Origin: Escherichia coli
GTDB lineage: Bacteria > Pseudomonadota > Gammaproteobacteria > Enterobacterales > Enterobacteriaceae
Reading direction: 5' to 3' (one strand)
NCBI RefSeq assembly: GCF_030013595.1
Contig: NZ_CP122768.1
Length of the DNA: 64,000 nt
Part shown: positions 3,568 to 45,934 of the stretch, piece after piece
Layout of the letters: the number at the start of each line of letters is the position of its first letter
How positions within the stretch are numbered: the first letter of the stretch is position 1
Position numbers and translations under genes: made by a program
The notes under the pieces: generated by a model
The model's input: the letters and a program-made list of their open reading frames with translations, nothing else
What the model was told of the DNA's origin: nothing
The model's database searches: none

Positions 3568-3631
3568 TGATGCTGATATCGGGCTGGAATGGCCCGATAG
3601 TATTTAACTTTCTCTATAAGAATGGTTATAT

Positions 3632-25646: not shown

Positions 25647-26557
25647 TTATTCGTTTAAGGTTAAAAATTCATTAAATTGTTCAATACTCGGATAAGATGA
25701 TTGCGTACCTTTCCCTGTGACGCTGAAAGCGGCAAAGAGAGCGGCTTTTTTCAAAGCGGCTTCAACATCACCGCTTTGAACATAATAATGGGAAAAGCAA
25801 CCAATAAATGCGTCACCAGCGCCACTAGTATCAACAGCATTTACTTTGAATGCAGGAACATGGACTTCCTGATCGCGGGTCATCCATAATGCGCCTTTTT
25901 CGCTCATGGTAACAATAATATTGTTCAGCCCTTTATCAACTAACGAACGTGCGGCCAAACGAATATGATCATAAGTATCAACCGACATACCGGTTAATAT
26001 TTCCAGTTCTGTTTCATTCGGGATAAAGAAATCACATTTGCAGGCATAAGACATATCTAACTCACGCAATGCCGGAGCCGGATTTAATAACACTTCAATA
26101 CCATTTTTCTTACCAAACTCAATCGCGTGGTAAACTGTTTCCAGTTGAACTTCCAGTTGTAAAACGATCAATTTGCATTTTTTCAGATCTTCTGCAGCTC
26201 GATCGATATCTTCCGGGGAAAGAAATTTATTCGCTCCCTTAATTATTAATATACTATTGCTCGAGTTGGCATTAACAAAGATCGGTGCAACACCACTGCT
26301 GGTACAGGGGACTTTCTCAACATAAGTGGTATTAATTCCCCATGATTCGAGATTACGAATAGTATTATCCGCAAAAATATCATCACCTACTTTAGTCAGC
26401 ATCAGGACTTTTGAATTCAATTTAGCCGCCGCCACCGCTTGATTAGCACCTTTCCCACCACATCCGATTTTGAAGGCAGGTGCTTCCAGAGTTTCTCCTT
26501 CTTTAGGCATCTGATTAGTGTAAGTAATGAGATCCACCATATTGGAACCAATAACTG
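25647..26557 (-). pseudogene. deoK: Ribokinase-family sugar kinase (DeoK-like deoxyribokinase), 5' end removed by IS1
   Basis: PfkB/ribokinase motifs (GGKGANQAVAAA, DTSGAGDAF); reading frame runs upstream (VIGSNMVDL...) straight into the IS1 end at 26558 with no start codon or promoter. Confidence 0.7.
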
Positions 26558-26572
26558 GGTAATGACTCCAAC

Positions 26573-27076
26573 TTACTGATAGTGTTTTATGTTCAGATAA
26601 TGCCCGATGACCTTGTCATGCAGCTCCACCGATTTTGAGAACGACAGTGACTTCCGTCCCAGCCTTGCCAGATGTTGTCTCAGATTCAGGTTATGCCGCT
26701 CAATGCGCTGAGTATAACGCTTGCTGATAACGTGCAGCTTTCCCTTCAGGCGTGATTCATACAGCGGCCAGCCATCCGTCATCCATACCACGACCTCAAA
26801 GGCCGACAGCAGGCTCAGAAGACGCTCCAGTGTGGCCAGAGTGCGTTCACCGAAGACGTGCGCCACAACCGTCCTCCGCATCCTGTCATACGCGTAAAAC
26901 AGCCAGCGCTGACGTGATTTAGCACCGACGTAGCCCCACTGTTCGTCCATTTCAGCGCAGACAATCACATCACTGCCCGGTTGTATGCGCGAGGTTACCG
27001 ACTGCGGCCTGAGTTTTTTAAGTGGCGGAAAATCGTGTTGAGGCCAACGCCAATAATGCGTGCACTGGCGCGACAT
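26573..27076 (-). CDS. insB: IS1 transposase InsB reading frame
   Basis: 167-aa ORF matching IS1 InsB with a few substitutions relative to the K-12 copy as recalled. Confidence 0.9.
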
Positions 27077-27270
27077 CCGACGCCATTCATGGCCATATCA
27101 ATGATTTTCTGGTGCGTACCGGGCTGAGAGGCGGCGTAAGTGAACTGTAGTTGCCATGTTTTACGGCAGTGAGAGCAGAGATAGCGCTGATGTCCGGCGG
27201 TGCTTTTGCCGTTACGCACCACCCCGTCAGTAGCTGAACAGGAGGGACAGCTGATAGAAACAGAAGCCAC
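26995..27270 (-). CDS. insA: IS1 InsA
   Basis: 91-aa [19 protein letters not shown]...; start codon here is GTG. Confidence 0.9.
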
Positions 27271-27325
27271 TGGAGCACCTCAAAAACACCATCATACACT
27301 AAATCAGTAAGTTGGCAGCATCACC

Positions 27326-28027
27326 GACAATGCAGATGGTTCAACCATGCTGGATAAACGTTATGTCATCACTAACGGTAATCAGCTGGCGATTCAAAAT
27401 GATTTACTGGAGAGTTTATCAAAAGCGTTAAACCAACCGTGGCCACAACGAATGCAGGAGATGCTCCAGCAAATTTTGCCTCATCGTGGTGCGTTATTAA
27501 CTAATTTTTATCAGGCACATGATTATTTACTGCATGGCGATGATAAATCATTGAACCGTGCCAGTGAATTATTAGGTGAGATTGTTCAATCATCCCCAGA
27601 ATTTACCTACGCGAGAGCAGAAAAAGCATTAGTTGATATCGTGCGCCATTCTCAACATCCTTTAGATGAAAAACAATTAGCAGCACTGAACACAGACATA
27701 GATAACATTGTTACACTACCGGAATTGAATAACCTGTCCATTATATATCAAATAAAAGCGGTCAGTGCTCTGGTAAAAGGTAAAACAGATGAGTCTTACC
27801 AGGCGATAAATACTGGCATTGATCTTGAAATGTCCTGGCTAAATTATGTGTTGCTTGGCAAGGTTTATGAAATGAAGGGGATGAACCGGGAAGCAGCTGA
27901 TGCATATCTCACCGCCTTTAATTTACGCCCAGGGGCAAACACCCTTTACTGGATTGAAAATGGTATATTCCAGACTTCTGTTCCTTATGTTGTACCTTAT
28001 CTCGACAAATTTCTCGCTTCAGAATAA
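27326..28027 (+). pseudogene. cadC: cadC 3' fragment (C-terminal about 233 codons of the ToxR-like activator); 5' half replaced by IS1
   Basis: ORF ends about 365 bp upstream of cadB in the position and orientation of cadC; begins abruptly at the IS1 end. Confidence 0.8.
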
Positions 28028-28392
28028 GTAACTCCCGGGTTGATTTATGCTCGGCAAGATTTGTTGTTGAGTTTTTGTATGTTTCTGTTGGTATAATATG
28101 TTGCGGCAATTTATTTGCCGCATAATTTTTATTACATAAATTTAACCAGAAAATGTCCCACAATCCATTGTAAATATTGAATGTTTATCTTTTCATGATA
28201 TCAACTTGCGATCCTGATGTGTTAATAAAAAACCTCAAGTTCTCACTTACAGAAACTTTTGTGTTATTTCACCTAATCTTTAGGATTAATCCTTTTTTCG
28301 TGAGTATTCTTAGCGCCAGTTTGGTCTGGTCAGGAAATAGTTATACATCATGACCCGGACTCCAAATTCAAAAATGAAATTAGGAGAAGAGC
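28028..28392 (+). promoter_or_regulatory. cadBA promoter/regulatory region (Pcad)
   Basis: Conserved intergenic region between cadC and cadB; individual CadC sites not mapped. Confidence 0.5.
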
Positions 28393-29727
28393 ATGAGTTC
28401 TGCCAAGAAGATCGGGCTATTTGCCTGTACCGGTGTTGTTGCCGGTAATATGATGGGGAGCGGTATTGCATTATTACCTGCGAACCTAGCAAGTATCGGT
28501 GGTATTGCTATCTGGGGTTGGATTATCTCTATTATTGGTGCAATGTCGCTGGCGTATGTATATGCCCGACTGGCAACAAAAAACCCGCAACAAGGTGGCC
28601 CAATTGCTTATGCCGGAGAAATTTCCCCTGCATTTGGTTTTCAGACAGGTGTTCTTTATTACCATGCTAACTGGATTGGTAACCTGGCGATTGGTATTAC
28701 CGCTGTATCTTATCTTTCCACCTTCTTCCCAGTATTAAATGATCCTGTTCCGGCGGGTATCGCCTGTATTGCTATCGTCTGGGTATTTACCTTTGTAAAT
28801 ATGCTCGGCGGTACCTGGGTAAGCCGTTTAACCACTATTGGTCTGGTGCTGGTTCTTATTCCTGTGGTAATGACAGCTATTGTTGGCTGGCATTGGTTTG
28901 ATGCTGCGACTTATGCTGCTAACTGGAATACTGCGGATACCACCGATGGTCATGCGATCATTAAAAGTATTCTGCTCTGCCTGTGGGCCTTCGTGGGTGT
29001 TGAATCCGCAGCTGTAAGTACTGGTATGGTTAAAAACCCGAAACGTACCGTTCCGCTGGCAACCATGCTGGGTACTGGTTTAGCAGGTATTGTTTATATC
29101 GCTGCGACTCAGGTGCTTTCCGGTATGTATCCGTCTTCTGTAATGGCAGCTTCCGGTGCTCCGTTTGCAATCAGTGCTTCAACTATCCTCGGTAACTGGG
29201 CTGCGCCGCTGGTTTCTGCATTCACCGCCTTTGCGTGCCTGACCTCTCTGGGCTCCTGGATGATGTTGGTAGGCCAGGCAGGTGTACGTGCCGCTAACGA
29301 CGGTAACTTCCCGAAAGTTTATGGTGAAGTCGACAGCAACGGTATTCCGAAAAAAGGTCTGCTGCTGGCTGCAGTGAAAATGACTGCCCTGATGATCCTC
29401 ATCACTCTGATGAACTCTGCCGGTGGTAAAGCATCTGACCTGTTCGGTGAACTGACCGGTATCGCAGTACTGCTGACTATGCTGCCGTACTTCTACTCTT
29501 GCGTTGACCTGATTCGTTTTGAAGGCGTTAACATCCGCAACTTTGTCAGCCTGATCTGCTCTGTACTGGGTTGCGTGTTCTGCTTCATCGCGCTGATGGG
29601 CGCAAGCTCCTTCGAGCTGGCAGGTACCTTCATCGTCAGCCTGATTATCCTGATGTTCTACGCTCGCAAAATGCACGAGCGCCAGAGCCACTCAATGGAT
29701 AACCACACAGCGTCTAACGCACATTAA
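28393..29727 (+). CDS. cadB: Lysine:cadaverine antiporter
   Basis: 444-aa APC-family transporter upstream of cadA. Confidence 0.95.
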   Translation: MSSAKKIGLFACTGVVAGNMMGSGIALLPANLASIGGIAIWGWIISIIGAMSLAYVYARLATKNPQQGGPIAYAGEISPAFGFQTGVLYYHANWIGNLAIGITAVSYLSTFFPVLNDPVPAGIACIAIVWVFTFVNMLGGTWVSRLTTIGLVLVLIPVVMTAIVGWHWFDAATYAANWNTADTTDGHAIIKSILLCLWAFVGVESAAVSTGMVKNPKRTVPLATMLGTGLAGIVYIAATQVLSGMYPSSVMAASGAPFAISASTILGNWAAPLVSAFTAFACLTSLGSWMMLVGQAGVRAANDGNFPKVYGEVDSNGIPKKGLLLAAVKMTALMILITLMNSAGGKASDLFGELTGIAVLLTMLPYFYSCVDLIRFEGVNIRNFVSLICSVLGCVFCFIALMGASSFELAGTFIVSLIILMFYARKMHERQSHSMDNHTASNAH

Positions 29728-29806
29728 TTAAAAGTATTTTCCGAGGCTCCTCCTTTCATTTTGTCCCATGTGTTGGGAGGGGCCTTTTTTACCTGGAGAT
29801 ATGACT

Positions 29807-31954
29807 ATGAACGTTATTGCAATATTGAATCACATGGGGGTTTATTTTAAAGAAGAACCCATCCGTGAACTTCATCGCGCGCTTGAACGTCTGAACTTCC
29901 AGATTGTTTACCCGAACGACCGTGACGACTTATTAAAACTGATCGAAAACAATGCGCGTCTGTGCGGCGTTATTTTTGACTGGGATAAATATAATCTCGA
30001 GCTGTGCGAAGAAATTAGCAAAATGAACGAGAACCTGCCGTTGTACGCGTTCGCTAATACGTATTCCACTCTCGATGTAAGCCTGAATGACCTGCGTTTA
30101 CAGATTAGCTTCTTTGAATATGCGCTGGGTGCTGCTGAAGATATTGCTAACAAGATCAAGCAGACCACTGACGAATATATCAACACTATTCTGCCTCCGC
30201 TGACCAAAGCACTGTTTAAATATGTTCGTGAAGGTAAATATACTTTCTGTACTCCTGGTCACATGGGCGGTACTGCATTCCAGAAAAGCCCGGTAGGTAG
30301 CCTGTTCTATGATTTCTTTGGTCCGAACACCATGAAATCTGATATTTCCATTTCAGTATCTGAACTGGGTTCTCTGCTGGATCACAGTGGTCCACACAAA
30401 GAAGCAGAACAGTATATCGCTCGCGTCTTTAACGCAGACCGCAGCTACATGGTGACCAACGGTACTTCCACTGCGAACAAAATTGTTGGTATGTACTCTG
30501 CTCCAGCAGGCAGCACCATTCTGATTGACCGTAACTGCCACAAATCGCTGACCCACCTGATGATGATGAGCGATGTTACGCCAATCTATTTCCGCCCGAC
30601 CCGTAACGCTTACGGTATTCTTGGTGGTATCCCACAGAGTGAATTCCAGCACGCTACCATTGCTAAGCGCGTGAAAGAAACACCAAACGCAACCTGGCCG
30701 GTACATGCTGTAATTACTAACTCTACCTATGATGGTCTGCTGTACAACACCGACTTCATCAAGAAAACACTGGATGTGAAATCCATCCACTTTGACTCCG
30801 CGTGGGTGCCTTACACCAACTTCTCACCGATTTACGAAGGTAAATGCGGTATGAGCGGTGGCCGTGTAGAAGGGAAAGTGATTTACGAAACCCAGTCTAC
30901 TCACAAACTGCTGGCGGCGTTCTCTCAGGCTTCCATGATCCACGTTAAAGGTGACGTAAACGAAGAAACCTTTAACGAAGCCTACATGATGCACACCACC
31001 ACTTCTCCGCACTACGGTATCGTGGCGTCCACTGAAACCGCTGCGGCGATGATGAAAGGCAATGCAGGTAAGCGTCTGATCAACGGTTCCATTGAACGTG
31101 CGATCAAATTCCGTAAAGAGATCAAACGTCTGAGAACGGAATCTGATGGCTGGTTCTTTGATGTATGGCAGCCGGATCATATCGATACGACTGAATGCTG
31201 GCCGCTGCGTTCTGACAGCACCTGGCACGGCTTCAAAAACATCGATAACGAGCACATGTATCTTGACCCGATCAAAGTCACCCTGCTGACTCCGGGGATG
31301 GAAAAAGACGGCACCATGAGCGACTTTGGTATTCCGGCCAGCATCGTGGCGAAATACCTCGACGAACATGGCATCGTTGTTGAGAAAACCGGTCCGTATA
31401 ACCTGCTGTTCCTGTTCAGCATCGGTATCGATAAGACCAAAGCACTGAGCCTGCTGCGTGCTCTGACAGACTTCAAACGTGCGTTCGATCTGAACCTGCG
31501 TGTGAAAAACATGCTGCCGTCTCTGTATCGTGAAGATCCTGAATTCTATGAAAACATGCGTATTCAGGAACTGGCTCAGAATATCCACAAACTGATTGTT
31601 CACCACAATCTGCCGGATCTGATGTATCGCGCATTTGAAGTTCTGCCGACCATGGTAATGACTCCGTATGCTGCGTTCCAGAAAGAGCTGCACGGTATGA
31701 CCGAAGAAGTTTACCTCGACGAAATGGTAGGTCGTATTAACGCCAATATGATCCTTCCGTATCCGCCGGGAGTTCCTCTGGTAATGCCGGGTGAAATGAT
31801 CACCGAAGAAAGCCGTCCGGTTCTGGAGTTCCTGCAGATGCTGTGTGAAATCGGCGCTCACTATCCGGGCTTTGAAACCGATATTCACGGTGCATACCGT
31901 CAGGCTGATGGCCGCTATACCGTTAAGGTATTGAAAGAAGAAAGCAAAAAATAA
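29807..31954 (+). CDS. cadA: Inducible lysine decarboxylase
   Basis: 715 aa from MNVIAILNHMGVYF...; full-length agreement with E. coli CadA as recalled. ORF track start at 29768 is an upstream in-frame extension. Confidence 0.95.
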   Translation: MNVIAILNHMGVYFKEEPIRELHRALERLNFQIVYPNDRDDLLKLIENNARLCGVIFDWDKYNLELCEEISKMNENLPLYAFANTYSTLDVSLNDLRLQISFFEYALGAAEDIANKIKQTTDEYINTILPPLTKALFKYVREGKYTFCTPGHMGGTAFQKSPVGSLFYDFFGPNTMKSDISISVSELGSLLDHSGPHKEAEQYIARVFNADRSYMVTNGTSTANKIVGMYSAPAGSTILIDRNCHKSLTHLMMMSDVTPIYFRPTRNAYGILGGIPQSEFQHATIAKRVKETPNATWPVHAVITNSTYDGLLYNTDFIKKTLDVKSIHFDSAWVPYTNFSPIYEGKCGMSGGRVEGKVIYETQSTHKLLAAFSQASMIHVKGDVNEETFNEAYMMHTTTSPHYGIVASTETAAAMMKGNAGKRLINGSIERAIKFRKEIKRLRTESDGWFFDVWQPDHIDTTECWPLRSDSTWHGFKNIDNEHMYLDPIKVTLLTPGMEKDGTMSDFGIPASIVAKYLDEHGIVVEKTGPYNLLFLFSIGIDKTKALSLLRALTDFKRAFDLNLRVKNMLPSLYREDPEFYENMRIQELAQNIHKLIVHHNLPDLMYRAFEVLPTMVMTPYAAFQKELHGMTEEVYLDEMVGRINANMILPYPPGVPLVMPGEMITEESRPVLEFLQMLCEIGAHYPGFETDIHGAYRQADGRYTVKVLKEESKK

Positions 31955-31967
31955 TTAGCTCGTACAA

Positions 31968-31996
31968 GGGAAGTGGCTTGCCACTTCCCTTTTTTG
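31968..31996 (+). terminator. Rho-independent terminator after cadA
   Basis: gggaagtgg-cttg-ccacttccc hairpin followed by TTTTTTG. Confidence 0.8.
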
Positions 31997-32012
31997 CTCA
32001 TAAGGAGAACAC

Positions 32013-33470
32013 ATGAAAACACCCTCACAGCCGCGCGCGATATACTATATCGTGGCGATCCAAATCTGGGAGTACTTCAGTTTTTACGGCATGCGTGCCT
32101 TACTCATTCTCTATCTCACCCATCAGCTTGGTTTTGATGATAACCATGCCATCAGCCTGTTCAGCGCATATGCTTCTCTGGTTTACGTTACCCCTATTCT
32201 CGGCGGCTGGCTTGCCGACCGCCTGCTCGGCAACCGCACTGCAGTGATTGCCGGCGCGCTGTTAATGACCCTTGGCCATGTGGTGCTGGGCATTGATACA
32301 AATTCAACCTTTAGCCTGTATCTGGCGCTGGCAATCATTATTTGTGGCTACGGTTTATTCAAATCAAACATCAGCTGTTTGCTTGGCGAGCTCTACGACG
32401 AGAACGATCATCGACGTGATGGCGGTTTTTCGCTGCTGTATGCTGCAGGCAATATCGGTTCTATCGCCGCCCCCATCGCCTGCGGCCTGGCTGCTCAGTG
32501 GTATGGATGGCATGTTGGCTTTGCCCTTGCGGGTGGCGGCATGTTTATCGGTTTGTTGATTTTCTTAAGCGGTCATCGTCATTTCCAGTCCACGCGTAGT
32601 ATGGATAAGAAAGCGCTCACTAGCGTCAAATTTGCCTTACCAGTATGGAGCTGGTTAGTGGTGATGCTCTGTTTAGCCCCAGTATTTTTTACCCTGCTGC
32701 TGGAGAACGACTGGTCCGGATATTTGCTGGCGATCGTTTGCCTCATTGCAGCACAAATCATTGCCCGCATGATGATCAAATTCCCCGAACACCGCCGTGC
32801 TCTTTGGCAAATTGTATTGTTGATGTTTGTCGGGACGTTGTTCTGGGTACTGGCACAACAGGGCGGCAGTACCATCAGCTTGTTTATCGATCGCTTTGTG
32901 AATCGTCAGGCATTCAATATTGAAGTACCTACAGCACTATTCCAGTCGGTGAATGCCATTGCGGTGATGCTCGCTGGGGTTGTTCTGGCCTGGCTGGCGT
33001 CGCCAGAAAGCCGCGGCAATTCAGCATTGCGCGTCTGGCTGAAGTTTGCCTTTGGCTTACTGCTGATGGCTTGTGGCTTTATGTTGCTGGCATTTGATGC
33101 CCGACATGCAGCGGCTGGCGGTCAAGCGTCAATGGGCGTGATGGTATCCGGGCTGGCGCTAATGGGCTTTGCTGAACTCTTTATTGACCCGGTGGCGATT
33201 GCGCAAATCACGCGTCTGAAAATGTCTGGCGTATTAACCGGTATTTATATGCTGGCAACAGGCGCGGTCGCCAACTGGCTGGCAGGCGTCGTGGCACAGC
33301 AGACGACAGAGTCGCAAATTAGCGGTATGGCAATTGCCGCTTACCAGCGATTCTTTTCTCAGATGGGAGAGTGGACGTTGGCTTGTGTCGCGATCATCGT
33401 GGTATTGGCCTTTGCTACCCGTTTTCTGTTTAGCACGCCGACGAATATGATACAGGAGAGCAACGATTAA
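32013..33470 (+). CDS. dtpC: Dipeptide/tripeptide:H+ permease (POT family)
   Basis: 485-aa POT-family ORF in the conserved position between cadA and lysU. Confidence 0.9.
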
Positions 33471-33706
33471 CTGTCGTAAAAACAATTGGTTATGAATAAA
33501 TTAACTTTCAGTTTATCACACTAGCAAATCGAGATTAATAAGTCATTTAAACCATTTTTATGGTTATTTATTAGTGATATCAACTTGAGGTAAGCGTTAG
33601 TTTCGATAAGATAAACTGAGTTATTAATAGTCGAGGCAGATAATACAGTGTACCGATCTGTCTCTTTATCTACGCTAAATTGAAAGCTGGATTTAGAGGA
33701 ACCAAA

Positions 33707-35224
33707 ATGTCTGAACGAGAAACACGGGGAGCCAATGAGGCTATTGATTTTAACGATGAACTGAGAAATCGCCGCGAAAAACTGGCGGCACTACGTCAGC
33801 AAGGTGTGGCGTTTCCCAATGATTTTCGCCGCGACCATACCTCTGACCAGTTGCACGAAGAGTTTGATGCGAAGGATAACCAGGAACTGGAATCCTTAAA
33901 CATTGAAGTCTCGGTTGCTGGCCGAATGATGACCCGTCGTATCATGGGGAAAGCCTCCTTTGTAACGTTGCAGGATGTCGGTGGCCGTATTCAACTGTAC
34001 GTTGCAAGAGATAGCCTGCCAGAAGGTGTTTATAACGATCAGTTTAAAAAATGGGATCTGGGTGACATTATCGGTGCCCGCGGTACGCTGTTTAAGACGC
34101 AAACGGGTGAGCTTTCCATTCACTGTACTGAGCTGCGCCTGCTGACTAAAGCACTACGTCCTTTACCAGATAAATTCCATGGTCTGCAGGATCAGGAAGT
34201 CCGTTATCGTCAACGTTATCTGGACCTCATCGCTAACGATAAATCCCGTCAAACGTTTGTTGTCCGTTCAAAAATTCTGGCCGCTATCCGTCAGTTCATG
34301 GTCGCGCGCGGCTTTATGGAAGTAGAAACCCCGATGATGCAGGTAATTCCAGGTGGGGCATCTGCTCGCCCGTTTATTACCCATCATAACGCTCTGGATT
34401 TAGATATGTACCTGCGTATCGCGCCAGAGCTGTATCTGAAACGTCTGGTTGTAGGCGGTTTTGAACGGGTATTCGAAATCAACCGTAACTTCCGTAATGA
34501 AGGTATTTCTGTTCGCCATAATCCTGAGTTCACAATGATGGAACTCTACATGGCGTATGCGGATTACCACGATTTGATTGAACTGACAGAGTCACTGTTC
34601 CGCACCCTGGCACAAGAGGTTCTGGGTACCACTAAAGTCACTTATGGCGAGCATGTGTTTGATTTCGGCAAACCGTTTGAAAAACTCACCATGCGCGAAG
34701 CAATCAAAAAATATCGTCCAGAAACCGATATGGCCGACCTGGATAATTTTGATGCCGCTAAAGCATTAGCTGAATCTATTGGTATTACGGTAGAGAAAAG
34801 CTGGGGGCTGGGACGTATTGTCACGGAGATCTTTGATGAAGTGGCAGAAGCACATCTGATTCAGCCAACCTTTATTACGGAATATCCCGCAGAAGTGTCA
34901 CCGCTGGCGCGCCGTAATGATGTTAACCCGGAAATCACCGACCGATTTGAATTCTTCATCGGTGGTCGTGAAATCGGTAATGGTTTTAGCGAATTAAACG
35001 ACGCAGAAGATCAGGCTGAACGTTTCCAGGAACAGGTTAACGCTAAAGCTGCAGGTGACGACGAAGCCATGTTCTATGACGAAGATTACGTGACTGCGCT
35101 GGAATATGGTTTGCCACCAACCGCTGGTCTGGGTATTGGTATCGACCGAATGATTATGCTGTTTACAAACAGTCATACTATTCGCGACGTTATTCTCTTC
35201 CCGGCGATGCGCCCACAGAAATAA
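33707..35224 (+). CDS. lysU: Lysyl-tRNA synthetase, inducible isoform
   Basis: 505 aa from MSERETRG...; class II aaRS motifs; identification as lysU (not lysS) by genomic context. Confidence 0.92.
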
Positions 35225-35235
35225 TTTTCACTTTA

Positions 35236-35269
35236 ATGAACGAAGCAGTCAGGCGACTGCTTCGTTCAT
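35236..35269 (+). terminator. Hairpin after lysU
   Basis: atgaacgaagcagtc-aggc-gactgcttcgttcat inverted repeat. Confidence 0.55.
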
Positions 35270-35343
35270 CATTCCGCAAATCCAGTTTTGAGGAGAGACG
35301 CTTCGTTTCACGATAACCAGCGGGTCCACTCAACTACAGCTCC

Positions 35344-35516
35344 TAAAAGAGAGAAAAAAGTAATGCCACAGGCAGACTCATTGGCCAGGTTATTCCTACC
35401 AGGAATGCACTAAGTAAACGAATATGTGTTTTCTCATGTGAGATAAACCAGATAATGACAAAGGATATGTTCACACCAATCACATAAAAAATTAATATTT
35501 TAGAGAATAGTGCCAT
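35344..35516 (-). pseudogene. ghoT: ghoT (type V toxin) with apparent 1-bp deletion causing frameshift after codon 18
   Basis: ATG at 35516 gives MALFSKILIFYVIGVNIS then shifts; the +1 frame continues VIIWFISHEKTHIRLLSAFLVGITWPMSLPVALLFSLF-stop, which restores the recalled 57-aa GhoT. Deletion is in an A-run near 35459-35461. Confidence 0.6.
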
Positions 35517-35543
35517 TTTTTATGTTCTTCTTATCCTTCCTGG

Positions 35544-35840
35544 CTACTTGTAAAACTGACGGAAATAGTCATCAACGGTCATAATGTTGAGGTCAAAGTC
35601 AATATCCGGTAAGTCTAAGCATTTAAGCCTGATTAAATCTTCGATTTCACTTGCGGCTAACGATGTCGTTATTGCGAAGGAGTTTTCATTCAATTGTCGT
35701 GGTATCCCATATTCATCAGCCACGATAGAGGAGAAATTCATATCATACATCAATGATCTTAACCTTAAGAACACTGAGGAATAAGATGATGGATAATCAA
35801 AAGAAACAACATAAGTATTGAACTTGTTTTTACCTTCCAT
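35544..35840 (-). CDS. ghoS: GhoS antitoxin (endoribonuclease) of the GhoT/GhoS type V toxin-antitoxin system
   Basis: 98-aa ORF upstream of ghoT in the same orientation. Confidence 0.85.
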   Translation of the reverse strand: MEGKNKFNTYVVSFDYPSSYSSVFLRLRSLMYDMNFSSIVADEYGIPRQLNENSFAITTSLAASEIEDLIRLKCLDLPDIDFDLNIMTVDDYFRQFYK

Positions 35841-36066
35841 AATATGACTCCTATCAATATTGAACGCTCTGGGGACGCAAAACTTATTAACCCCGATTGA
35901 TGATTCTCATATAGGAGATATTCTTTTTTTTGCTCAGTAAAGGGGATGACTTGGGACAAAAAAACGCGCTCTCTGCCCATTCTTTGTGCATCCCCCTACC
36001 CTTCAGATGCTCACCTGCATCACACCGCGGAGAGCATGAAAAATATTGTGACTCTGTACTCTCCCA

Positions 36067-36339
36067 TCAACTGCGAATATCATCATACTCCCGCGTTTTA
36101 TCAAATTCGTGTTTCGCAAATGGGCATAGTGGGATAATTTTTCGTTTTTCCCGACGCATTTTTTCCACGACTTTCGCAACCAGCTGTTTACCAATCCCCT
36201 GCCCTTTCAGGCTTTCATCGACATCGGTATGTTCGATAATCGCTAAATTCTCTCCGGTCGGCACAAAGACAATTTCAGCGATTTGCTTGCCCTGTTCGTC
36301 ATTAATGTAAAATTTATTGTGGCCTTCGCGTATTTCCAT
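36067..36339 (-). CDS. yjdJ: GNAT-family acetyltransferase-like small protein
   Basis: 90-aa ORF in conserved position next to yjdI. Confidence 0.8.
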
Positions 36340-36350
36340 TTTACCCTCGC

Positions 36351-36581
36351 TTATTTATGACGGTATTTCAGCGCGCCGCTCGGGCACGTATCAATCACTT
36401 TAACCACAGTGGCAACGTCGACTTCATCCGGCATGATCCACGGCTTTCGTTTGAGATTAAATAACTTGCCGTTGCCACGTACGCAATTGCCAGAATGCTG
36501 ACATATCGCAGTATTGAAATAGACATCGATCTTTTCGCCGGTATAACAGCGATAACCCCCGTCCAGTAGCGCCCGATCCAT
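36351..36581 (-). CDS. yjdI: Small conserved protein YjdI
   Basis: 76-aa Cys-containing ORF in conserved position, divergent from dcuS. Confidence 0.75.
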
Positions 36582-36761
36582 GACCTTCCCTCTCTCATCA
36601 GTATGATTATCGCTATAAGCATAGCCCCGGAATCTTCATACAGCACTGGCAGTTTCCGTTGCCAGAATCTCTTCCCCTATATAGCCAATCATTCTTACTC
36701 CCTTTGAATTACCCGCCTCATCAGAGATAATGCTTAAGAAATTTGTCACACAAGGAAGCTG

Positions 36762-38393
36762 ATGAGACATTCATTGCCCTACCGTATGTTACGCAAACGT
36801 CCGATGAAATTGAGTACCACTGTGATCTTAATGGTCAGCGCGGTACTGTTCTCGGTGCTATTGGTGGTGCATCTGATTTACTTCTCGCAAATCAGTGATA
36901 TGACGCGAGACGGGCTAGCCAACAAGGCGCTGGCAGTGGCGCGTACCCTCGCCGACTCGCCGGAAATCCGTCAGGGCTTGCAGAAAAAACCTCAGGAGAG
37001 CGGCATCCAGGCCATCGCGGAAGCCGTGCGCAAACGCAACGATCTGCTATTTATTGTCGTTACCGATATGCAAAGTCTTCGCTACTCGCATCCTGAAGCC
37101 CAGCGTATTGGTCAGCCATTTAAAGGTGATGACATCCTTAAAGCGCTGAATGGCGAAGAAAATGTCGCTATCAATCGCGGTTTTCTGGCGCAGGCTTTAC
37201 GCGTATTTACCCCCATCTACGATGAAAATCATAAACAAATTGGCGTGGTGGCGATCGGCCTTGAGTTAAGTCGCGTGACCCAACAGATCAATGACAGTCG
37301 CTGGAGCATTATCTGGTCGGTATTATTTGGCATGCTGGTCGGACTGATCGGCACCTGCATTCTGGTTAACGTACTGAAAAAAATCCTTTTTGGCCTGGAA
37401 CCCTACGAAATCTCCACGCTGTTTGAGCAGCGCCAGGCCATGTTGCAGTCTATCAAAGAAGGCGTCGTTGCCGTGGACGATCGCGGTGAAGTCACGCTGA
37501 TCAACGATGCCGCACAAGAATTGCTGAATTACCGTAAGTCGCAGGACGATGAGAAACTGTCGACGCTAAGCCACTCGTGGTCACAGGTGGTAGATGTCTC
37601 GGAAGTGTTACGCGACGGTACCCCGCGGCGCGACGAAGAGATTACGATTAAAGACCGGCTATTACTGATCAACACCGTTCCGGTGCGCAGTAATGGCGTT
37701 ATCATCGGTGCCATTTCAACCTTCAGGGACAAAACTGAAGTACGTAAACTGATGCAGCGACTCGATGGTCTGGTCAACTATGCTGACGCACTTCGTGAAC
37801 GATCCCACGAATTTATGAATAAATTGCACGTGATTCTCGGATTATTGCATCTGAAGAGTTATAAGCAGTTGGAAGATTACATTCTCAAAACAGCCAATAA
37901 CTATCAGGAAGAGATTGGCTCTCTGCTGGGTAAGATCAAATCTCCGGTTATCGCTGGTTTTTTAATCAGCAAGATTAACCGCGCGACCGATTTAGGCCAT
38001 ACGCTGATTTTAAACAGTGAAAGCCAGCTGCCAGACAGCGGCAGTGAAGACCAGGTCGCGACGCTGATTACCACGTTGGGAAATCTGATAGAAAACGCGC
38101 TGGAAGCATTAGGGCCGGAACCCGGAGGCGAAATTAGCGTAACATTGCACTACCGTCACGGCTGGCTGCACTGTGAAGTTAATGATGATGGACCGGGGAT
38201 CGCACCCGATAAAATCGATCACATTTTTGACAAAGGTGTCTCGACAAAAGGAAGCGAGCGAGGCGTCGGTTTAGCACTTGTCAAACAACAGGTAGAAAAT
38301 CTCGGCGGCAGCATCGCCGTGGAATCGGAACCCGGGATTTTCACACAATTTTTTGTCCAGATACCCTGGGACGGGGAGAGGTCGAACAGATGA
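36762..38393 (+). CDS. dcuS: C4-dicarboxylate sensor histidine kinase
   Basis: 543-aa ORF with two TM helices, periplasmic sensing domain, PAS and HATPase domains. Confidence 0.95.
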   Translation: MRHSLPYRMLRKRPMKLSTTVILMVSAVLFSVLLVVHLIYFSQISDMTRDGLANKALAVARTLADSPEIRQGLQKKPQESGIQAIAEAVRKRNDLLFIVVTDMQSLRYSHPEAQRIGQPFKGDDILKALNGEENVAINRGFLAQALRVFTPIYDENHKQIGVVAIGLELSRVTQQINDSRWSIIWSVLFGMLVGLIGTCILVNVLKKILFGLEPYEISTLFEQRQAMLQSIKEGVVAVDDRGEVTLINDAAQELLNYRKSQDDEKLSTLSHSWSQVVDVSEVLRDGTPRRDEEITIKDRLLLINTVPVRSNGVIIGAISTFRDKTEVRKLMQRLDGLVNYADALRERSHEFMNKLHVILGLLHLKSYKQLEDYILKTANNYQEEIGSLLGKIKSPVIAGFLISKINRATDLGHTLILNSESQLPDSGSEDQVATLITTLGNLIENALEALGPEPGGEISVTLHYRHGWLHCEVNDDGPGIAPDKIDHIFDKGVSTKGSERGVGLALVKQQVENLGGSIAVESEPGIFTQFFVQIPWDGERSNR

Positions 38394-39109
38394 TCAATGT
38401 ATTAATTATCGATGACGACGCAATGGTCGCGGAGCTGAATCGCCGATACGTAGCACAAATCCCAAGCTTTCAATGCTGTGGAACAGCCTCGACGCTGGAG
38501 AAAGCCAAAGAGATTATCTTCAATAGCGATACGCCTATCGACCTGATATTGCTCGATATCTATATGCAAAAAGAGAACGGGCTCGATTTACTGCCTGTCC
38601 TGCATAACGCGCGTTGCAAAAGTGATGTGATTGTCATCTCCTCCGCAGCCGATGCGGCAACCATTAAAGATTCGCTGCATTACGGTGTCGTGGATTACCT
38701 GATCAAACCCTTCCAGGCTTCCCGCTTTGAAGAGGCGCTCACCGGCTGGCGGCAAAAGAAAATGGCGCTGGAAAAACATCAGTATTATGACCAGGCCGAG
38801 CTTGATCAGCTAATCCACGGCAGCAGCTCCAACGAGCAGGATCCTCGTCGCTTGCCAAAAGGCTTAACGCCGCAGACGTTACGCACGCTGTGCCAGTGGA
38901 TTGACGCGCATCAGGACTATGAGTTTTCAACCGACGAGCTGGCTAACGAGGTTAACATTTCGCGTGTTTCCTGCCGTAAATACCTCATCTGGCTGGTCAA
39001 CTGCCACATCTTGTTCACCAGTATCCATTATGGCGTCACGGGGCGTCCGGTTTACCGTTACCGTATTCAGGCAGAACACTACTCACTGCTGAAACAATAT
39101 TGCCAATAA
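38390..39109 (+). CDS. dcuR: C4-dicarboxylate response regulator
   Basis: 239-aa response regulator; ATGA overlap with dcuS. Confidence 0.95.
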   Translation: MINVLIIDDDAMVAELNRRYVAQIPSFQCCGTASTLEKAKEIIFNSDTPIDLILLDIYMQKENGLDLLPVLHNARCKSDVIVISSAADAATIKDSLHYGVVDYLIKPFQASRFEEALTGWRQKKMALEKHQYYDQAELDQLIHGSSSNEQDPRRLPKGLTPQTLRTLCQWIDAHQDYEFSTDELANEVNISRVSCRKYLIWLVNCHILFTSIHYGVTGRPVYRYRIQAEHYSLLKQYCQ

Positions 39110-39679
39110 CGGATCGCTGGTTATCTGTAAGTAATAATTATTACCGTAATGCAAAATATTCCTGGCACAAGTTACATTCTTCATCAGTAAAACTTGTGCC
39201 AGATCAAATATAATTATCCCTCCATCATCGTTAAAAATTAATATCTCTTCAGATGAACGGTGTTTTTAATTTCAAAACGCTAACAAAAGTTAATTAACTA
39301 TTATGTCACCCGCATTATGTGTATTTTTACCCACAAATGGGTAGATCAGATTAATCTATAAACCTAATGATATCTGCCCTGAGAACAAAAAATAGACCGA
39401 TAAATATCAATAAGATAACAGCAAACAAAACATTAACATCTGCGCAGTACAAACTATAAACCCATCGCCAGAGAGTCATTCTCTCTGAAAAAGCCGCTTA
39501 TCACAGTGCATAAATTTGCCGCTGCTTTAATCAGCCAATATTCACTGTGAGGTATTTGCTAAAGCCGGTAACGACCAAACGGATATTTAGTCAGGCTCTG
39601 AAAACAGTTCATACAAAACAGAACGTGACTGTGATCTATTCAGCAAAAATTTAAATAGGATTATCGCGAGGGTTCACAC
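39110..39679 (+). promoter_or_regulatory. Long AT-rich dcuB upstream control region
   Basis: 570-bp non-coding AT-rich interval ahead of dcuB; sites not individually mapped. Confidence 0.4.
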
Positions 39680-41020
39680 ATGTTATTTACTATCCAACTT
39701 ATCATAATACTGATATGTCTGTTTTATGGTGCCAGAAAGGGTGGTATCGCGCTGGGTTTATTAGGCGGTATCGGTCTGGTCATTCTGGTCTTCGTCTTCC
39801 ACCTTCAGCCAGGTAAACCACCGGTTGATGTCATGCTGGTTATCATTGCGGTGGTGGCGGCATCGGCGACCTTGCAAGCTTCGGGCGGTCTTGATGTCAT
39901 GCTGCAAATTGCCGAGAAGCTGCTGCGCCGCAACCCGAAATATGTCTCAATTGTCGCGCCGTTTGTGACCTGTACGCTGACCATTCTTTGCGGTACGGGT
40001 CATGTGGTTTACACCATTCTGCCGATCATCTACGACGTCGCTATTAAGAACAACATCCGTCCGGAACGCCCGATGGCGGCAAGTTCTATCGGTGCACAGA
40101 TGGGGATTATCGCCAGTCCGGTGTCGGTTGCAGTCGTGTCTCTGGTTGCGATGCTGGGTAATGTCACCTTTGATGGTCGCCATCTTGAGTTCCTCGACCT
40201 GCTAGCAATCACCATTCCATCGACGTTAATCGGTATCCTGGCGATCGGTATCTTCAGCTGGTTCCGCGGTAAAGATCTGGATAAAGACGAAGAGTTCCAG
40301 AAATTCATCTCCGTACCGGAAAACCGTGAGTATGTTTACGGTGATACCGCGACGCTGCTGGATAAAAAACTGCCGAAAAGCAACTGGCTTGCAATGTGGA
40401 TCTTCCTCGGGGCAATCGCTGTAGTCGCCCTTCTTGGTGCTGATTCGGACCTGCGTCCATCCTTCGGCGGCAAACCGCTGTCGATGGTACTGGTTATTCA
40501 GATGTTTATGCTGCTGACCGGGGCGCTGATTATTATCCTGACCAAAACCAATCCCGCGTCTATCTCAAAAAACGAAGTCTTCCGTTCCGGTATGATCGCC
40601 ATCGTGGCGGTGTACGGTATCGCATGGATGGCAGAAACCATGTTCGGTGCGCATATGTCTGAAATTCAGGGCGTACTGGGTGAAATGGTGAAAGAGTATC
40701 CGTGGGCCTATGCCATTGTTCTGCTGCTGGTTTCCAAGTTTGTAAACTCTCAGGCTGCGGCGCTGGCGGCGATTGTTCCGGTCGCGCTGGCGATCGGCGT
40801 TGATCCGGCATACATCGTGGCTTCAGCACCGGCTTGCTACGGTTATTACATCCTGCCGACTTATCCGAGCGATCTGGCAGCGATTCAGTTTGACCGTTCC
40901 GGCACCACCCACATCGGTCGCTTCGTCATCAACCACAGCTTTATTCTGCCGGGGTTGATTGGTGTGAGCGTATCGTGCGTCTTCGGCTGGATCTTCGCCG
41001 CGATGTACGGGTTCTTATAA
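39680..41020 (+). CDS. dcuB: Anaerobic C4-dicarboxylate antiporter
   Basis: 446-aa polytopic membrane ORF. Confidence 0.95.
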
Positions 41021-41029
41021 ATGCACTTT

Positions 41030-41065
41030 GCGTGCCGCCCGTGACTACGCGGCACGCCATTTTCG
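41030..41065 (+). terminator. Hairpin with T-tract after dcuB
   Basis: gcgtgccgc ... gcggcacgc followed by CATTTTCG. Confidence 0.55.
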
Positions 41066-41097
41066 AATAACAAATACAGAGTTACAGGCTGGAAGCT

Positions 41098-42744
41098 ATG
41101 TCAAACAAACCCTTTATCTACCAGGCACCTTTCCCGATGGGGAAAGACAATACCGAATACTATCTACTCACTTCCGATTACGTTAGCGTTGCCGACTTCG
41201 ACGGCGAAACCATTCTGAAAGTGGAACCAGAAGCCCTGACCCTGCTGGCGCAGCAAGCCTTTCACGACGCTTCTTTCATGCTCCGTCCGGCACACCAGAA
41301 ACAGGTTGCGGCTATTCTTCACGATCCAGAAGCCAGCGAAAACGACAAGTACGTGGCGCTGCAATTCTTAAGAAACTCCGAAATCGCCGCCAAAGGCGTG
41401 CTGCCGACCTGCCAGGATACCGGCACCGCAATCATCGTCGGTAAAAAAGGTCAGCGCGTGTGGACCGGCGGCGGTGATGAAGAAGCACTGTCGAAAGGCG
41501 TGTACAACACCTATATCGAAGATAACCTGCGCTACTCGCAAAACGCGGCGCTGGACATGTACAAAGAGGTCAACACCGGCACTAACCTGCCTGCGCAAAT
41601 CGACCTGTACGCGGTAGATGGCGATGAGTACAAATTCCTCTGTGTCGCTAAAGGCGGCGGCTCTGCCAACAAAACCTATCTCTACCAGGAAACCAAAGCC
41701 CTGCTGACTCCCGGCAAACTGAAAAACTTCCTCGTTGAGAAAATGCGTACCCTCGGTACTGCAGCCTGCCCGCCGTACCATATCGCGTTTGTGATTGGCG
41801 GTACGTCTGCGGAAACCAACCTGAAAACCGTCAAGTTAGCAAGCGCTCACTATTATGATGAACTGCCGACGGAAGGGAACGAACATGGTCAGGCGTTCCG
41901 CGATGTCCAACTGGAACAGGAACTGCTGGAAGAGGCCCAGAAACTCGGTCTTGGCGCGCAGTTTGGCGGTAAATACTTCGCGCACGACATTCGCGTTATC
42001 CGTCTGCCACGTCACGGCGCATCCTTCCCGGTAGGCATGGGAGTCTCCTGCTCCGCTGACCGTAACATTAAAGCGAAAATCAACCGCGAAGGTATCTGGA
42101 TCGAAAAACTGGAACACAATCCAGGCCAGTACATTCCACAAGAACTGCGTCAGGCCGGTGAAGGCGAAGCGGTGAAAGTCGACCTTAACCGCCCGATGAA
42201 AGAGATCCTCGCCCAGCTTTCGCAATATCCGGTTTCCACTCGTTTGTCGCTCACCGGCACCATTATTGTGGGTCGAGATATTGCACACGCCAAGCTGAAA
42301 GAGCTGATTGACTCCGGTAAAGAACTTCCGCAGTACATCAAAGATCACCCGATCTACTACGCGGGTCCGGCGAAAACGCCTGCCGGTTATCCATCAGGTT
42401 CACTTGGCCCAACCACCGCAGGTCGTATGGACTCCTACGTGGATCTGCTGCAATCCCACGGCGGCAGCATGATCATGCTGGCGAAAGGTAACCGCAGTCA
42501 GCAGGTTACCGACGCGTGTCATAAACATGGCGGCTTCTACCTCGGTAGTATCGGCGGTCCGGCGGCGGTACTGGCGCAGCAGAGCATCAAGCATCTGGAA
42601 TGCGTCGCTTATCCGGAGCTGGGTATGGAAGCTATCTGGAAAATCGAAGTAGAAGATTTCCCGGCGTTTATCCTGGTCGATGACAAAGGCAACGACTTCT
42701 TCCAGCAAATCGTCAACAAACAGTGCGCGAACTGCACTAAGTAA
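41098..42744 (+). CDS. fumB: Class I (Fe-S) fumarate hydratase, anaerobic isozyme
   Basis: 548-aa ORF downstream of dcuB. Confidence 0.93.
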
Positions 42745-42866
42745 CCTCTTCGGCCCAGCGCCTGGCAGCATGCTGCCAGGTGATCCCCCTGGGCCACCTC
42801 TTTTGCGATTGTAATTTCACGCTTGCTGGTGAATAGTCAGTATTTTCCCTGACTTGCGAACTCACC

Positions 42867-43496
42867 ATGACCCGCACACTCAAGCCGTTAATTCTTAACA
42901 CCGGCGCACTGGCGCTAACGTTAATCCTGATTTATACCGGCATTTCGGCCAATGACAAACTCACCTGGCTGATGGAAGTGACACCGGTGATTATTGTCGT
43001 GCCGCTACTGCTTGCCACCGCTAAACGTTATCCGTTAACGCCGCTGCTCTATACGCTCATTTTCTTTCACGCCATCATCCTGATGGTCGGCGGACAATAC
43101 ACCTACGCGAAAGTCCCCGTTGGTTTTGAGGTGCAGGAATGGCTGGGGTTGAGTCGTAATCCGTATGACAAACTGGGGCATTTTTTCCAAGGGCTGGTGC
43201 CTGCACTGGTGGCACGAGAGATCCTTGTGCGCGGGATGTACGTTCGCGGACATAAGATGGTGGCGTTTCTGGTCTGCTGCGTGGCGCTGGCGATAAGCGC
43301 GATGTATGAATTAATCGAGTGGTGGGCGGCGCTGGCAATGGGTCAGGGAGCGGATGATTTTCTCGGCACCCAGGGCGACCAGTGGGACACGCAATCCGAT
43401 ATGTTCTGCGCGCTGCTTGGCGCATTAACGACGGTGATATTCCTCGCTCGCTTTCATTGCCGCCAGCTACGGCGCTTTGGCTTGATAACCGGATAA
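42867..43496 (+). CDS. yjdF: Inner membrane protein YjdF
   Basis: 209-aa membrane ORF in conserved position. Confidence 0.85.
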   Translation: MTRTLKPLILNTGALALTLILIYTGISANDKLTWLMEVTPVIIVVPLLLATAKRYPLTPLLYTLIFFHAIILMVGGQYTYAKVPVGFEVQEWLGLSRNPYDKLGHFFQGLVPALVAREILVRGMYVRGHKMVAFLVCCVALAISAMYELIEWWAALAMGQGADDFLGTQGDQWDTQSDMFCALLGALTTVIFLARFHCRQLRRFGLITG

Positions 43497-43515
43497 CAAC
43501 GTGCGCTTTGTTGAC

Positions 43516-43549
43516 GCCGGATGCGGCGTGAATTCCTTATCCGGTCTAC
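43516..43549. repeat. REP (repetitive extragenic palindromic) element
   Basis: gccggatgcggcgtgaattccttatccggtctac, classic REP sequence. Confidence 0.8.
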
Positions 43550-44083
43550 AAAATTTGCAAATCCAAAGCATTACATTAAGACATGGCCTGATAAACATAT
43601 CGCATCAGGCCATTTTCGTTAGCTATTGTCCACGTCAGGCTTTCACATCACTCACTGCACCGACCGGAATATCAGCATGAACAGGCTCGGGCGGTACTTT
43701 GCGATATTTATCCAGCAGATGGATCTGGATCCTGCGCAGCGTGCACCATTGAGGCGATAGAAACGGAAGTAGAGAATCAGCGTTACCATGAAAAACAGAG
43801 TCGGTAGAGCAATCATAATAAACTGCATACCTAATAGGGCTTGCGTAGACTGTTCAACATTCGGTACATAGCCAATCATCCCTAACACAACCGCAATGAA
43901 AAAAGCCGCAAAGGCTGAACCGCCCTTCACCACCATAGTCTGCACGGAGTAAGCGATGCTTTCACAGCGTACGTGCAGTTTATATTCACCGTAATCAACG
44001 GTATCTGCCACCATGATGACCTGTAATACCCAGAAAAGCGCCGTTCCCACATTCAGCAAGATACCCGCAATCACAATGAGGAC

Positions 44084-44092
44084 GACGTTGTG
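44084..44092. repeat. Target-site duplication (gacgttgtg), left copy
   Basis: Identical 9 bp directly flank both ends of IS1 copy 2. Confidence 0.9.
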
Positions 44093-44107
44093 GGTAATGA
44101 CTCCAAC

Positions 44108-44611
44108 TTACTGATAGTGTTTTATGTTCAGATAATGCCCGATGACCTTGTCATGCAGCTCCACCGATTTTGAGAACGACAGTGACTTCCGTCCCAGCCT
44201 TGCCAGATGTTGTCTCAGATTCAGGTTATGCCGCTCAATGCGCTGAGTATAACGCTTGCTGATAACGTGCAGCTTTCCCTTCAGGCGTGATTCATACAGC
44301 GGCCAGCCATCCGTCATCCATACCACGACCTCAAAGGCCGACAGCAGGCTCAGAAGACGCTCCAGTGTGGCCAGAGTGCGTTCACCGAAGACGTGCGCCA
44401 CAACCGTCCTCCGCATCCTGTCATACGCGTAAAACAGCCAGCGCTGACGTGATTTAGCACCGACGTAGCCCCACTGTTCGTCCATTTCAGCGCAGACAAT
44501 CACATCACTGCCCGGTTGTATGCGCGAGGTTACCGACTGCGGCCTGAGTTTTTTAAGTGGCGGAAAATCGTGTTGAGGCCAACGCCAATAATGCGTGCAC
44601 TGGCGCGACAT
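44108..44611 (-). CDS. insB: IS1 transposase InsB reading frame
   Basis: Identical translation to copy 1. Confidence 0.9.
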
Positions 44612-44805
44612 CCGACGCCATTCATGGCCATATCAATGATTTTCTGGTGCGTACCGGGCTGAGAGGCGGCGTAAGTGAACTGTAGTTGCCATGTTTTACG
44701 GCAGTGAGAGCAGAGATAGCGCTGATGTCCGGCGGTGCTTTTGCCGTTACGCACCACCCCGTCAGTAGCTGAACAGGAGGGACAGCTGATAGAAACAGAA
44801 GCCAC
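44530..44805 (-). CDS. insA: IS1 InsA
   Basis: Identical translation to copy 1. Confidence 0.9.
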
Positions 44806-44860
44806 TGGAGCACCTCAAAAACACCATCATACACTAAATCAGTAAGTTGGCAGCATCACC

Positions 44861-44869
44861 GACGTTGTG
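44861..44869. repeat. Target-site duplication (gacgttgtg), right copy
   Basis: See left copy. Confidence 0.9.
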
Positions 44870-45934
44870 ATAGCTCATTAATGCCATTAACAGGAGAACA
44901 CCACAGCTTAACACCGGAAGAATAGATGCTCCGGCCCATAAAATGCGTCGGGATAATGATTTAACTAAGCGTGGGAAGAATACTAACGTCACCAGATTAG
45001 CAGCTCCCGCATACGACAGATAATAGGGGAACAAATCCGCATCACCGATAACATATGAGAAATAATAGATAGCAAAGCCGGTAATAATATTGCTGGCTAC
45101 ATTATAAGCAAGAGCCATACCCAAGAGGCATGAAAGCTGATCGTTTTTATAAATTAGCGCAACGATGGCTTTAAGTGTCAGATGGCTTCCTTCAGCAGAC
45201 GGTTGATTGTCTGACGAAAAGACTTCATGCACATTGCGCAGAGTGATGATGGTTGAAACAATAAAAAAGGCGATCAGTACCAGAGTGAACATCTGAAAGC
45301 CAAATCCCCGATCGCCACCGCCGACATAATTAACAAATGGTAGCGTCACACCTGCCGTAACAAAGCCTGCCAGACTGGCAAAAAAACGCGGATAAGGAAC
45401 CAGTTGTTCGCGCTCACGTTTATCGAGCGTTATGGTTGGAACCAGCGACCAGAAGGGAATATCCATAATGGTGTAAGTCATGCCCCAGAGGATGTAGGTC
45501 ACGCAAACAAAGACAATCTGAGTAGTACCTTCAAACAGATGCGCACTAAAGAGGAGAAATAAGATTACAGAGTTTGCCAACGTACCGATCAGGATCCAGG
45601 GTTTGAACTTACCCCATCGCGATCGCGTAGCATTTACAATCCATCCCATAATCGGATCGTTAATAGCATCCCAGATCCTCGCCACCAGAAACAAAGTACC
45701 GACCAAACCCACAGACAGCCCGACGACATCGGTGTAGTAATACATGAGGTACATATACACAATGCCGATCGCAAAATCCTTCCCGAACGCTCCAAATCCA
45801 TAACTGAGTTTTGTAGTCATTGAAATGCTCATAGGGTATCGGGTCGTTGTTACCAACGCCCGCCTTCTGTTATTGGTATCGTCAGAGGTGTGCGCCGGAA
45901 TAAATCCCCCGGCGCAGTAGCGTTTAGTCGCGTT

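Follow-up and report, generated by a model that had tools for sequence, protein, structure and literature searches.

An IS1 element without target-site duplication at the junction of a pheU genomic island and cadC in Escherichia coli

IS1 is a classic agent of adjacent deletions, which it reportedly promotes by intramolecular replicative transposition. The cad region of Shigella is said to have been removed by deletions known as 'black holes'. The loss of lysine decarboxylase in Shigella through an IS-associated rearrangement of the cad locus is summarised in PMC3739510. The same source describes STEC O117:K1:H7 as lysine-decarboxylase-negative, with cadC interrupted by a large aerobactin-bearing insert, and with a 5' deletion of 90 bp (PMC3739510). 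In enteroinvasive E. coli (EIEC), cadBA is described as intact and silenced through the loss of CadC (Casalino et al. 2003, as cited in PMC4156367 and PMC5723341). EIEC 6.81 has a documented IS1 insertion in cadC, and cadC supplied in trans restores cadaverine production in EIEC with intact cadBA (PMC4156367). A deoxyribose (deoK) operon located on a tRNA-Phe island is known from PAI II AL862, which lies at pheV (PMC7545054).

Here we describe an E. coli locus in which an IS1 copy joins an island integrated at pheU to an internal position of cadC. The stretch analysed, called the window below, comprises 64 kb of contig NZ_CP122768.1. An earlier note on this DNA had read the IS1 copy as the scar of a deletion that fused the island to cadC. 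The references for the comparison were two complete E. coli genomes with the same pheU island, 2015C-3163 (NZ_CP027219.1) and the porcine O141:H4 isolate P13-6 (NZ_CP080223.1).

Two IS1 copies and their flanks

Positions 26558-27325 of the window are occupied by a complete IS1 of 768 bp, designated copy A, which is intact and carries its transposase genes on the minus strand. Both canonical IS1 ends are matched with 0 mismatches, and the boundaries fall exactly at 26558 and 27325. The terminal inverted repeat of right-end type, GGTAATGACTCCAACTTACTGAT (GGTAATGACTCC...; 26558-26580, plus strand), adjoins the truncated deoK gene (deoK'), and that of left-end type, GGTGATGCTGCCAACTTACTGAT (GGTGATGCTGCC...; 27303-27325, minus strand), adjoins the truncated cadC gene (cadC'). 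In the window each end pattern is matched exactly twice, whereas 100 shuffles gave no match. The minus-strand frames insA (26995-27270; 91 codons with a GTG start) and insB' (26573-27076; 167 codons) are open and match positions 1-81 and 76-199, respectively, of the 199-position NCBIfam IS1 transposase profile (NF033558), which they jointly span. The A6C frameshift motif is located at 27013-27019 and reads AAAAAAC on the minus strand and GTTTTTT on the plus strand. The sole promoter-like match in or beside copy A lies in the left-end repeat, on the minus strand, and is directed into insA; no promoter-like site directed at cadC' was found in or beside the element.

The 9-bp sequences on either side of copy A are caataactg on the left (26549-26557) and gacaatgca on the right (27326-27334; cadC nt 838-846). 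In the references, the left sequence continues into caatgtccat..., the start of deoK on the minus strand. Compared by eye, the two flanks are identical at 2 of 9 positions and thus differ, as the earlier note had stated, and no k-mer of at least 6 bases is common to the two 30-bp flanks. That note had also named a flanking 8-9-bp repeat as the observation that would speak against its reading. None was seen on careful comparison, and a hidden or shifted duplication was rejected, as no 8-10-bp repeat arises when the ends are moved by up to 4 bp. The absent duplication bears on the context of copy A, which is not that of a simple insertion, and not on its membership of IS1.

The second IS1 of the window, copy B (44093-44860, minus strand), has the same orientation as copy A and interrupts melB (43652-45856). 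It is a simple insertion, and the perfect duplication ascribed to it earlier is indeed present, with the 9-bp sequence gacgttgtg on both sides (44084-44092 and 44861-44869). Copies A and B are 100% identical over 768 bp. As direct repeats, they bracket 16.8 kb with the gene order cadC'-cadB-cadA-dtpC-lysU-ghoST-dcuSR-dcuB-fumB-yjdF-melB'. An exchange between copy A and copy B was considered as well and ruled out: the duplication of copy B is intact and the segment between the two copies is present.

IS density in the window is otherwise low, and no tRNA gene was found within the 64 kb. Two Rfam matches above the gathering score, STnc630 (57000-57165, minus strand) and naRNA4 (62832-62909, plus strand), are ordinary core features. 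IS1 insertions close to the sites of copies A and B occur in other strains. In EH2252, an IS1 lies 13 bp downstream of the cadC site of copy A and has its own duplication, ggttcaacc, as an independent insertion. In SLK172, an IS1 of a different variant lies 11 bp from the melB site and is flanked by the duplication agctcatta. These near-site insertions are located at positions 3001-3768 and about 906-1673 of the extracted loci L005 and L023. Eleven further complete genomes gave a single-piece alignment like that of SLK172, which alone was inspected. Such neighbouring insertions suggest local IS1 target hot spots near the cadC and melB sites.

The missing interval and the origin of the two sides

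On the left of copy A, the window (1-26557, plus strand) holds the retained proximal part of the pheU-integrated genomic island, as recognised from its identity to P13-6 and 2015C-3163. The retained genes are fecE, a ShlB-family remnant, an aryl-polyene-type cluster, LacI/PTS genes, an IS3-family orfA, deoX, deoP and deoK'. Positions 2400-26557 differ from E. coli O141:H4 P13-6 by 1 mismatch in 24,158 bp (99.996% identity), and positions 1-2750 and 2744-26557 are 99.9% identical to 2015C-3163. A 3.9-kb insertion of IS3 and IS66 interrupts 2015C-3163 at the point corresponding to window 2744-2750 and is found neither in the window nor in P13-6.

The island part ends in deoK' (25647-26557, minus strand), a deoxyribokinase gene annotated in RefSeq as rbsK/ribokinase, which belongs to the deoX-deoP-deoK / deoQ deoxyribose module. 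In the references the gene measures 921 bp when intact; in the window its first 10 nt (ATGGACATTG) are gone, along with all that precedes them. The truncated kinase of the earlier note is therefore found where that note placed it, but the truncation is minimal: deoK' retains an ORF of 297 codons that starts at an internal ATG (26540), and its product matches positions 8-297 of the 298-position NCBIfam ribokinase profile. The start codon, the promoter region and the regulator gene are lost.

A deoXPK segment is carried by 1,350 complete E. coli genomes (at least 80% coverage), two of which were examined in detail. In GCA_036456605.1, an IS3-family element (extracted locus L006, 6226-7496), whose end sequence resembles that of IS629, is positioned 3 bp from the deoK breakpoint, after nt 7 of deoK, with deoQ retained beyond it. 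In several other lineages, with 99.0-99.9% identity, draft contigs all stop no more than 2 nt from the internal deoK ATG (window 26540-26542); these ends lie 15-17 bp from the IS1/deoK' junction and carry no IS sequence.

On the right of copy A, cadC' (27326-28027, plus strand; 702 nt) starts at nt 838 of the 1539 nt of cadC and comprises codons 280-512 and the stop codon, which places the junction in the middle of the gene, as had been claimed. Set against full-length CadC, its translation covers only a portion of the periplasmic sensor domain; neither the transmembrane segment (around residues 158-183) nor the winged-helix DNA-binding domain remains. The product matches positions 285-515 of the 516-position NCBIfam CadC profile, and its Pfam match is to CadC_C1 only. 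The DNA between cadC and cadB, including the cadBA promoter, is retained, and cadB (28393-29727, plus strand; 444 aa) and cadA (29807-31954, plus strand; 715 aa) are intact.

The uninterrupted arrangement can be read in 2015C-3163, where the locus begins with pheU, an integrase gene, IS1, the fec operon, the ShlB-family remnant, the aryl-polyene-type cluster and the LacI/PTS genes. It continues with deoX, deoP, deoK, deoQ, zinc-ribbon genes, Hha, YfjI, a GTPase gene and Ag43, and ends with DUF932, an antirestriction gene, a JAB-domain gene, YeeU/CbtA, DUF4942, an integrase remnant, cadC and cadBA. Window 2744-26557 aligns with 2015C-3163 up to position 4686018 at 99.92% identity, and window 27326-44092 aligns with it from 4709334 at 98.70% identity. 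The interval lost relative to this genome is 4686019-4709333, or 23,315 bp, which a comparison with the empty pheU site partitions into 21,862 bp of island, a 616-bp ancestral pheU-cadC spacer and 837 bp of cadC. Relative to P13-6, whose core on the right of the interval is 98.67% identical to the window, the loss is 4459717-4480877, or 21,161 bp. The sizing against genomes with intact cadC, which the earlier note had proposed, is provided by these two values.

Both references diverge from the window at the first base beyond each end of IS1. What is missing comprises the first 10 nt of deoK with the promoter, deoQ, about 20-22 kb of the distal island with Ag43, YeeU/CbtA and their neighbours, the spacer between pheU and cadC, and cadC nt 1-837 (54% of the gene). 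The earlier note had listed deoQ, the island edge, intervening core DNA and the 5' half of cadC as lost, and the comparison bears out this list. Nothing from the missing interval occurs elsewhere within the 64-kb window. The flanks, 26.5 kb to the left and 36.7 kb to the right, are collinear with both references, their order and orientation being kept, and a single inversion is ruled out by this collinearity with two genomes. In the references the two flanks keep that arrangement but are separated by 21.2-23.3 kb. By this comparison, copy A appears to mark the IS1-associated deletion junction that had been proposed, with a loss of about 21-23 kb; neither a one-step inversion nor a simple insertion would account for it.

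The two sides of copy A have different closest relatives. From the first base after IS1, the right flank (window 27326-44092) is 100.0% identical over 16,767 bp to the pig faecal isolates HCP5S3_I2 and LCP30S3_I5, which have an intact cadC and no island at pheU; the next best genomes reach 99.5%. The island is nearly identical to that of P13-6 while the adjoining core differs by 1.3%, and the changeover from island-type to host-type sequence falls at copy A. With the closest core relatives island-free and the island practically identical to one found next to a core that diverges by 1.3%, the comparison indicates that the roughly 60-kb pheU island, which contains fec, the aryl-polyene-type cluster, PTS genes, deoK and Ag43, has spread horizontally and entered this background recently.

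Neither junction was found in any of 5,426 complete E. coli genomes, and a scan of species-representative genomes gave 0 hits for the left one. Draft assemblies contain both. A contig of GCA_036246605.1 reads out of IS1 through the left junction and matches the window at 100% identity over 11,141 bp. For the right junction, contigs of SRR30668404, ERR5386557, ERR14362488, SRR19716120 and GCA_008326365.1 (the last common to seven samples) start inside IS1 and show 0-1 mismatch. No independent contig joins both junctions, because every such draft contig breaks inside IS1. By their recurrence in independent draft assemblies, the junctions are judged to be real and inherited. The contig of SRR30668404 (34.8 kb) crosses the melB site unbroken, so that this isolate has no copy B. 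As it carries the cadC junction without the second IS1, the junction in cadC probably predates the insertion in melB.

The junctions expected of possible ancestors are GGTAGACAATGCA+GGTAATGACTCC for the left junction of a cadC::IS1 insertion and GCAGCATCACC+CAATAACTGCAATGTCC for the junction of IS1 with the 5' end of deoK. Neither of these hypothetical ancestors, cadC::IS1 at the same site or IS1 at the deoK 5' end, is present in the 5,426 complete E. coli genomes. Read-through products predicted for CadC(1-282)::IS1 were also looked up as a check for a hidden second IS1. They measure 308, 292 and 300 aa for the three contig overhang lengths seen in assemblies of this lineage, and exact look-ups found none of them on record in the assembly collection. 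The presence of the cadC 5' sequence elsewhere, the other observation named as contrary to a deletion, thus finds no sign in complete genomes or product look-ups, where no 5' half of cadC lies beside IS1. Independent IS1 insertions in cadC are found in 12 complete genomes. Shared ancestry of copy A with the insertion in EH2252, 13 bp away, was ruled out, the site being different and the duplication its own. It was likewise ruled out for EC556, EC571 and EC581, in which IS1 lies at cadC nt 1233 and the island is smaller and without deoK.

Possible histories of the junction

Adjacent deletion and recombination between two IS1 copies had been put forward as candidate mechanisms, and this appears to be the right pair, as both yield the observed structure. 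The account that we place first, with chances that we regard as about balanced, is that a single IS1 made an adjacent deletion between cadC and deoK in a chromosome carrying the roughly 60-kb island. We infer that IS1 would first have inserted simply in cadC, duplicating gacaatgca (nt 838-846), with its right-end-type repeat directed at the 5' end of the gene. By intramolecular replicative transposition, the IS1 transposase would then have attacked a target that lies 10 nt inside deoK. The DNA between that IS1 end and the target would have left as a non-replicating circle, together with the upstream copy of the duplication, and a single IS1 with unrelated flanks would have been left behind. 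The mirror order, with IS1 first in deoK and a deletion proceeding rightwards into cadC, is equally compatible with the structure. For a deletion by one IS1, cadC is weakly favoured as the first site because 12 complete genomes have cadC::IS1 and none has IS1 at the deoK 5' end. The intact element, its unrelated flanks and the breakpoints located exactly at the IS1 ends argue for this account. Copy A also looks active, insA and insB' being intact and the identical copy B having inserted cleanly in melB, and two events suffice where recombination needs three. However, the end structure is identical to that left by recombination between two directly repeated IS1 copies, and no hybrid-IS signature is readable because copies A and B are identical. 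In addition, no intermediate of either route is found in the 5,426 complete genomes, in the scan of species-representative genomes or by the exact product look-ups, and the closest core relatives, HCP5S3_I2 and LCP30S3_I5, are island-free.

Recombination would start from two separate, co-oriented IS1 copies. One would have entered deoK 10 nt into the gene, with caataactg duplicated, and the other cadC, with gacaatgca duplicated; RecA-dependent exchange would then delete the interval and one IS1 in situ. Such an exchange would yield the exact structure observed, the left and right flanks of copy A stemming from different insertions. The genome does contain several identical, directly oriented IS1 copies, and cadC is a recurrent IS1 target. 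Three events are needed instead of two, however, neither single-insertion intermediate is seen among the 5,426 complete genomes, and the expected CadC(1-282)::IS1 read-through products are absent from the assembly collection, so that we consider this history possible but rather unlikely. The identity pattern raises another possibility, in which an island-free recipient with cadC::IS1 took up a donor island with deoK::IS1, through crossovers in the core upstream of pheU and within IS1. The island would then have arrived already truncated, and no deletion would have taken place in situ. The 99.996% identity of the island to its counterpart in P13-6, whose core differs by 1.3%, points to recent horizontal spread, and the sequence turns recipient-type exactly at IS1, being 100.0% identical to the island-free HCP5S3_I2. 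The same pattern would, however, result from integrase-mediated insertion at pheU followed by a deletion. Arrival of a truncated island further presupposes that IS1 inserted independently in each of two strains and that a transfer followed, and cadC::IS1 at the same site is found in none of the 5,426 complete genomes; we regard it as improbable.

Two other explanations would deny the loss itself, and both appear very unlikely to us. The true genome might contain a 21-kb segment between two IS1 copies that was lost by mis-joining during assembly. IS1, at 768 bp, exceeds the length of short reads, and the draft contigs of this lineage all break inside it. Against such an artefact, the collection contains none of the reciprocal junction products expected for the three overhang lengths, and the window reads cleanly through two IS1 copies, which suggests a long-read or finished assembly. 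Alternatively, the segment might have moved, by excision with IS1 and reinsertion or by successive inversions, so that an intact or 5' cadC persists elsewhere. The comparison is confined to the 64-kb window of the source genome, which leaves room for such a move; a single inversion is nevertheless excluded by the collinear flanks, nothing from the interval occurs elsewhere in the window, and no junction of the cadC 5' part with IS1 is on record in the complete genomes or the product look-ups. A more far-reaching interpretation, which we hold to be improbable, gives the junction a role of its own, either in capturing the island by recombination between IS1 copies during transfer, or as a selected pathoadaptive step toward a Shigella-like cad 'black hole'. 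For the former, IS1 may have served as portable homology during horizontal transfer, in place of a deletion in situ; for the latter, the clone, which has been sampled on several continents, may be midway to the 'black hole'.

Predicted consequences and comparison with known systems

As the remaining CadC is without its DNA-binding and membrane parts, cadBA would be uninducible, and the strain is predicted to be lysine-decarboxylase and cadaverine negative. With cadBA and its promoter intact, cadC supplied in trans would be expected to restore the activity. The use of deoxyribose is predicted to be lost or deregulated. Alternatively, read-through out of IS1, whose genes share the orientation of deoK', might be all that drives deoK'. 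The splitting of melB by copy B predicts a defect in melibiose transport. A lysine-decarboxylase-negative and probably deoxyribose- and melibiose-negative E. coli could be biochemically misidentified as Shigella-like. The two unique junction sequences may be used as clone-specific PCR or k-mer markers. One homologous recombination between copies A and B would remove cadBA entirely and thus produce a Shigella-like 'black hole'.

The locus adds one more independent loss of cadC with cadBA kept, the pattern described for enteroinvasive E. coli. As in EIEC, cadBA is intact and cadC was inactivated via IS1. Unlike in EIEC or in a simple cadC::IS1 insertion, the event in the window also removed about 20 kb of the adjacent pheU island. 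With CadC reduced to residues 280-512, the window shows a genetic inactivation of cadC, as belongs to the cad-locus silencing of Shigella and EIEC, which affects cadC or cadA; no invasion plasmid or other Shigella-like marker was seen within it. In Shigella, cadA itself is usually deleted or inactivated, whereas the window keeps cadA and cadB, and only the activator gene is truncated. A Shigella source of the window appears unlikely, given the intact cadBA, the low IS density and the 100% identity to the core of a pig commensal E. coli. The situation in STEC O117:K1:H7 is similar in that cadC is disrupted beside a horizontally acquired segment, and differs, by its description, from the IS1-bounded loss of the 5' 837 nt of cadC found here, for which reason this serotype was rejected as the source of the window. 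The deoX-deoP-deoK / deoQ module lies on an island associated with a Phe tRNA gene, as in PAI II AL862, but the island of the window is located at pheU and its module is without deoQ, the promoter and the deoK start codon.

With the IS1-promoted adjacent deletions, finally, the locus shares an IS kept at the junction, a deletion that starts from the IS end, the lack of a duplication and collinear flanks; unlike for those, the event at copy A is deduced from comparative genomics only. It brings no new mechanism or element type and is a fresh instance of the textbook IS1-mediated deletion.
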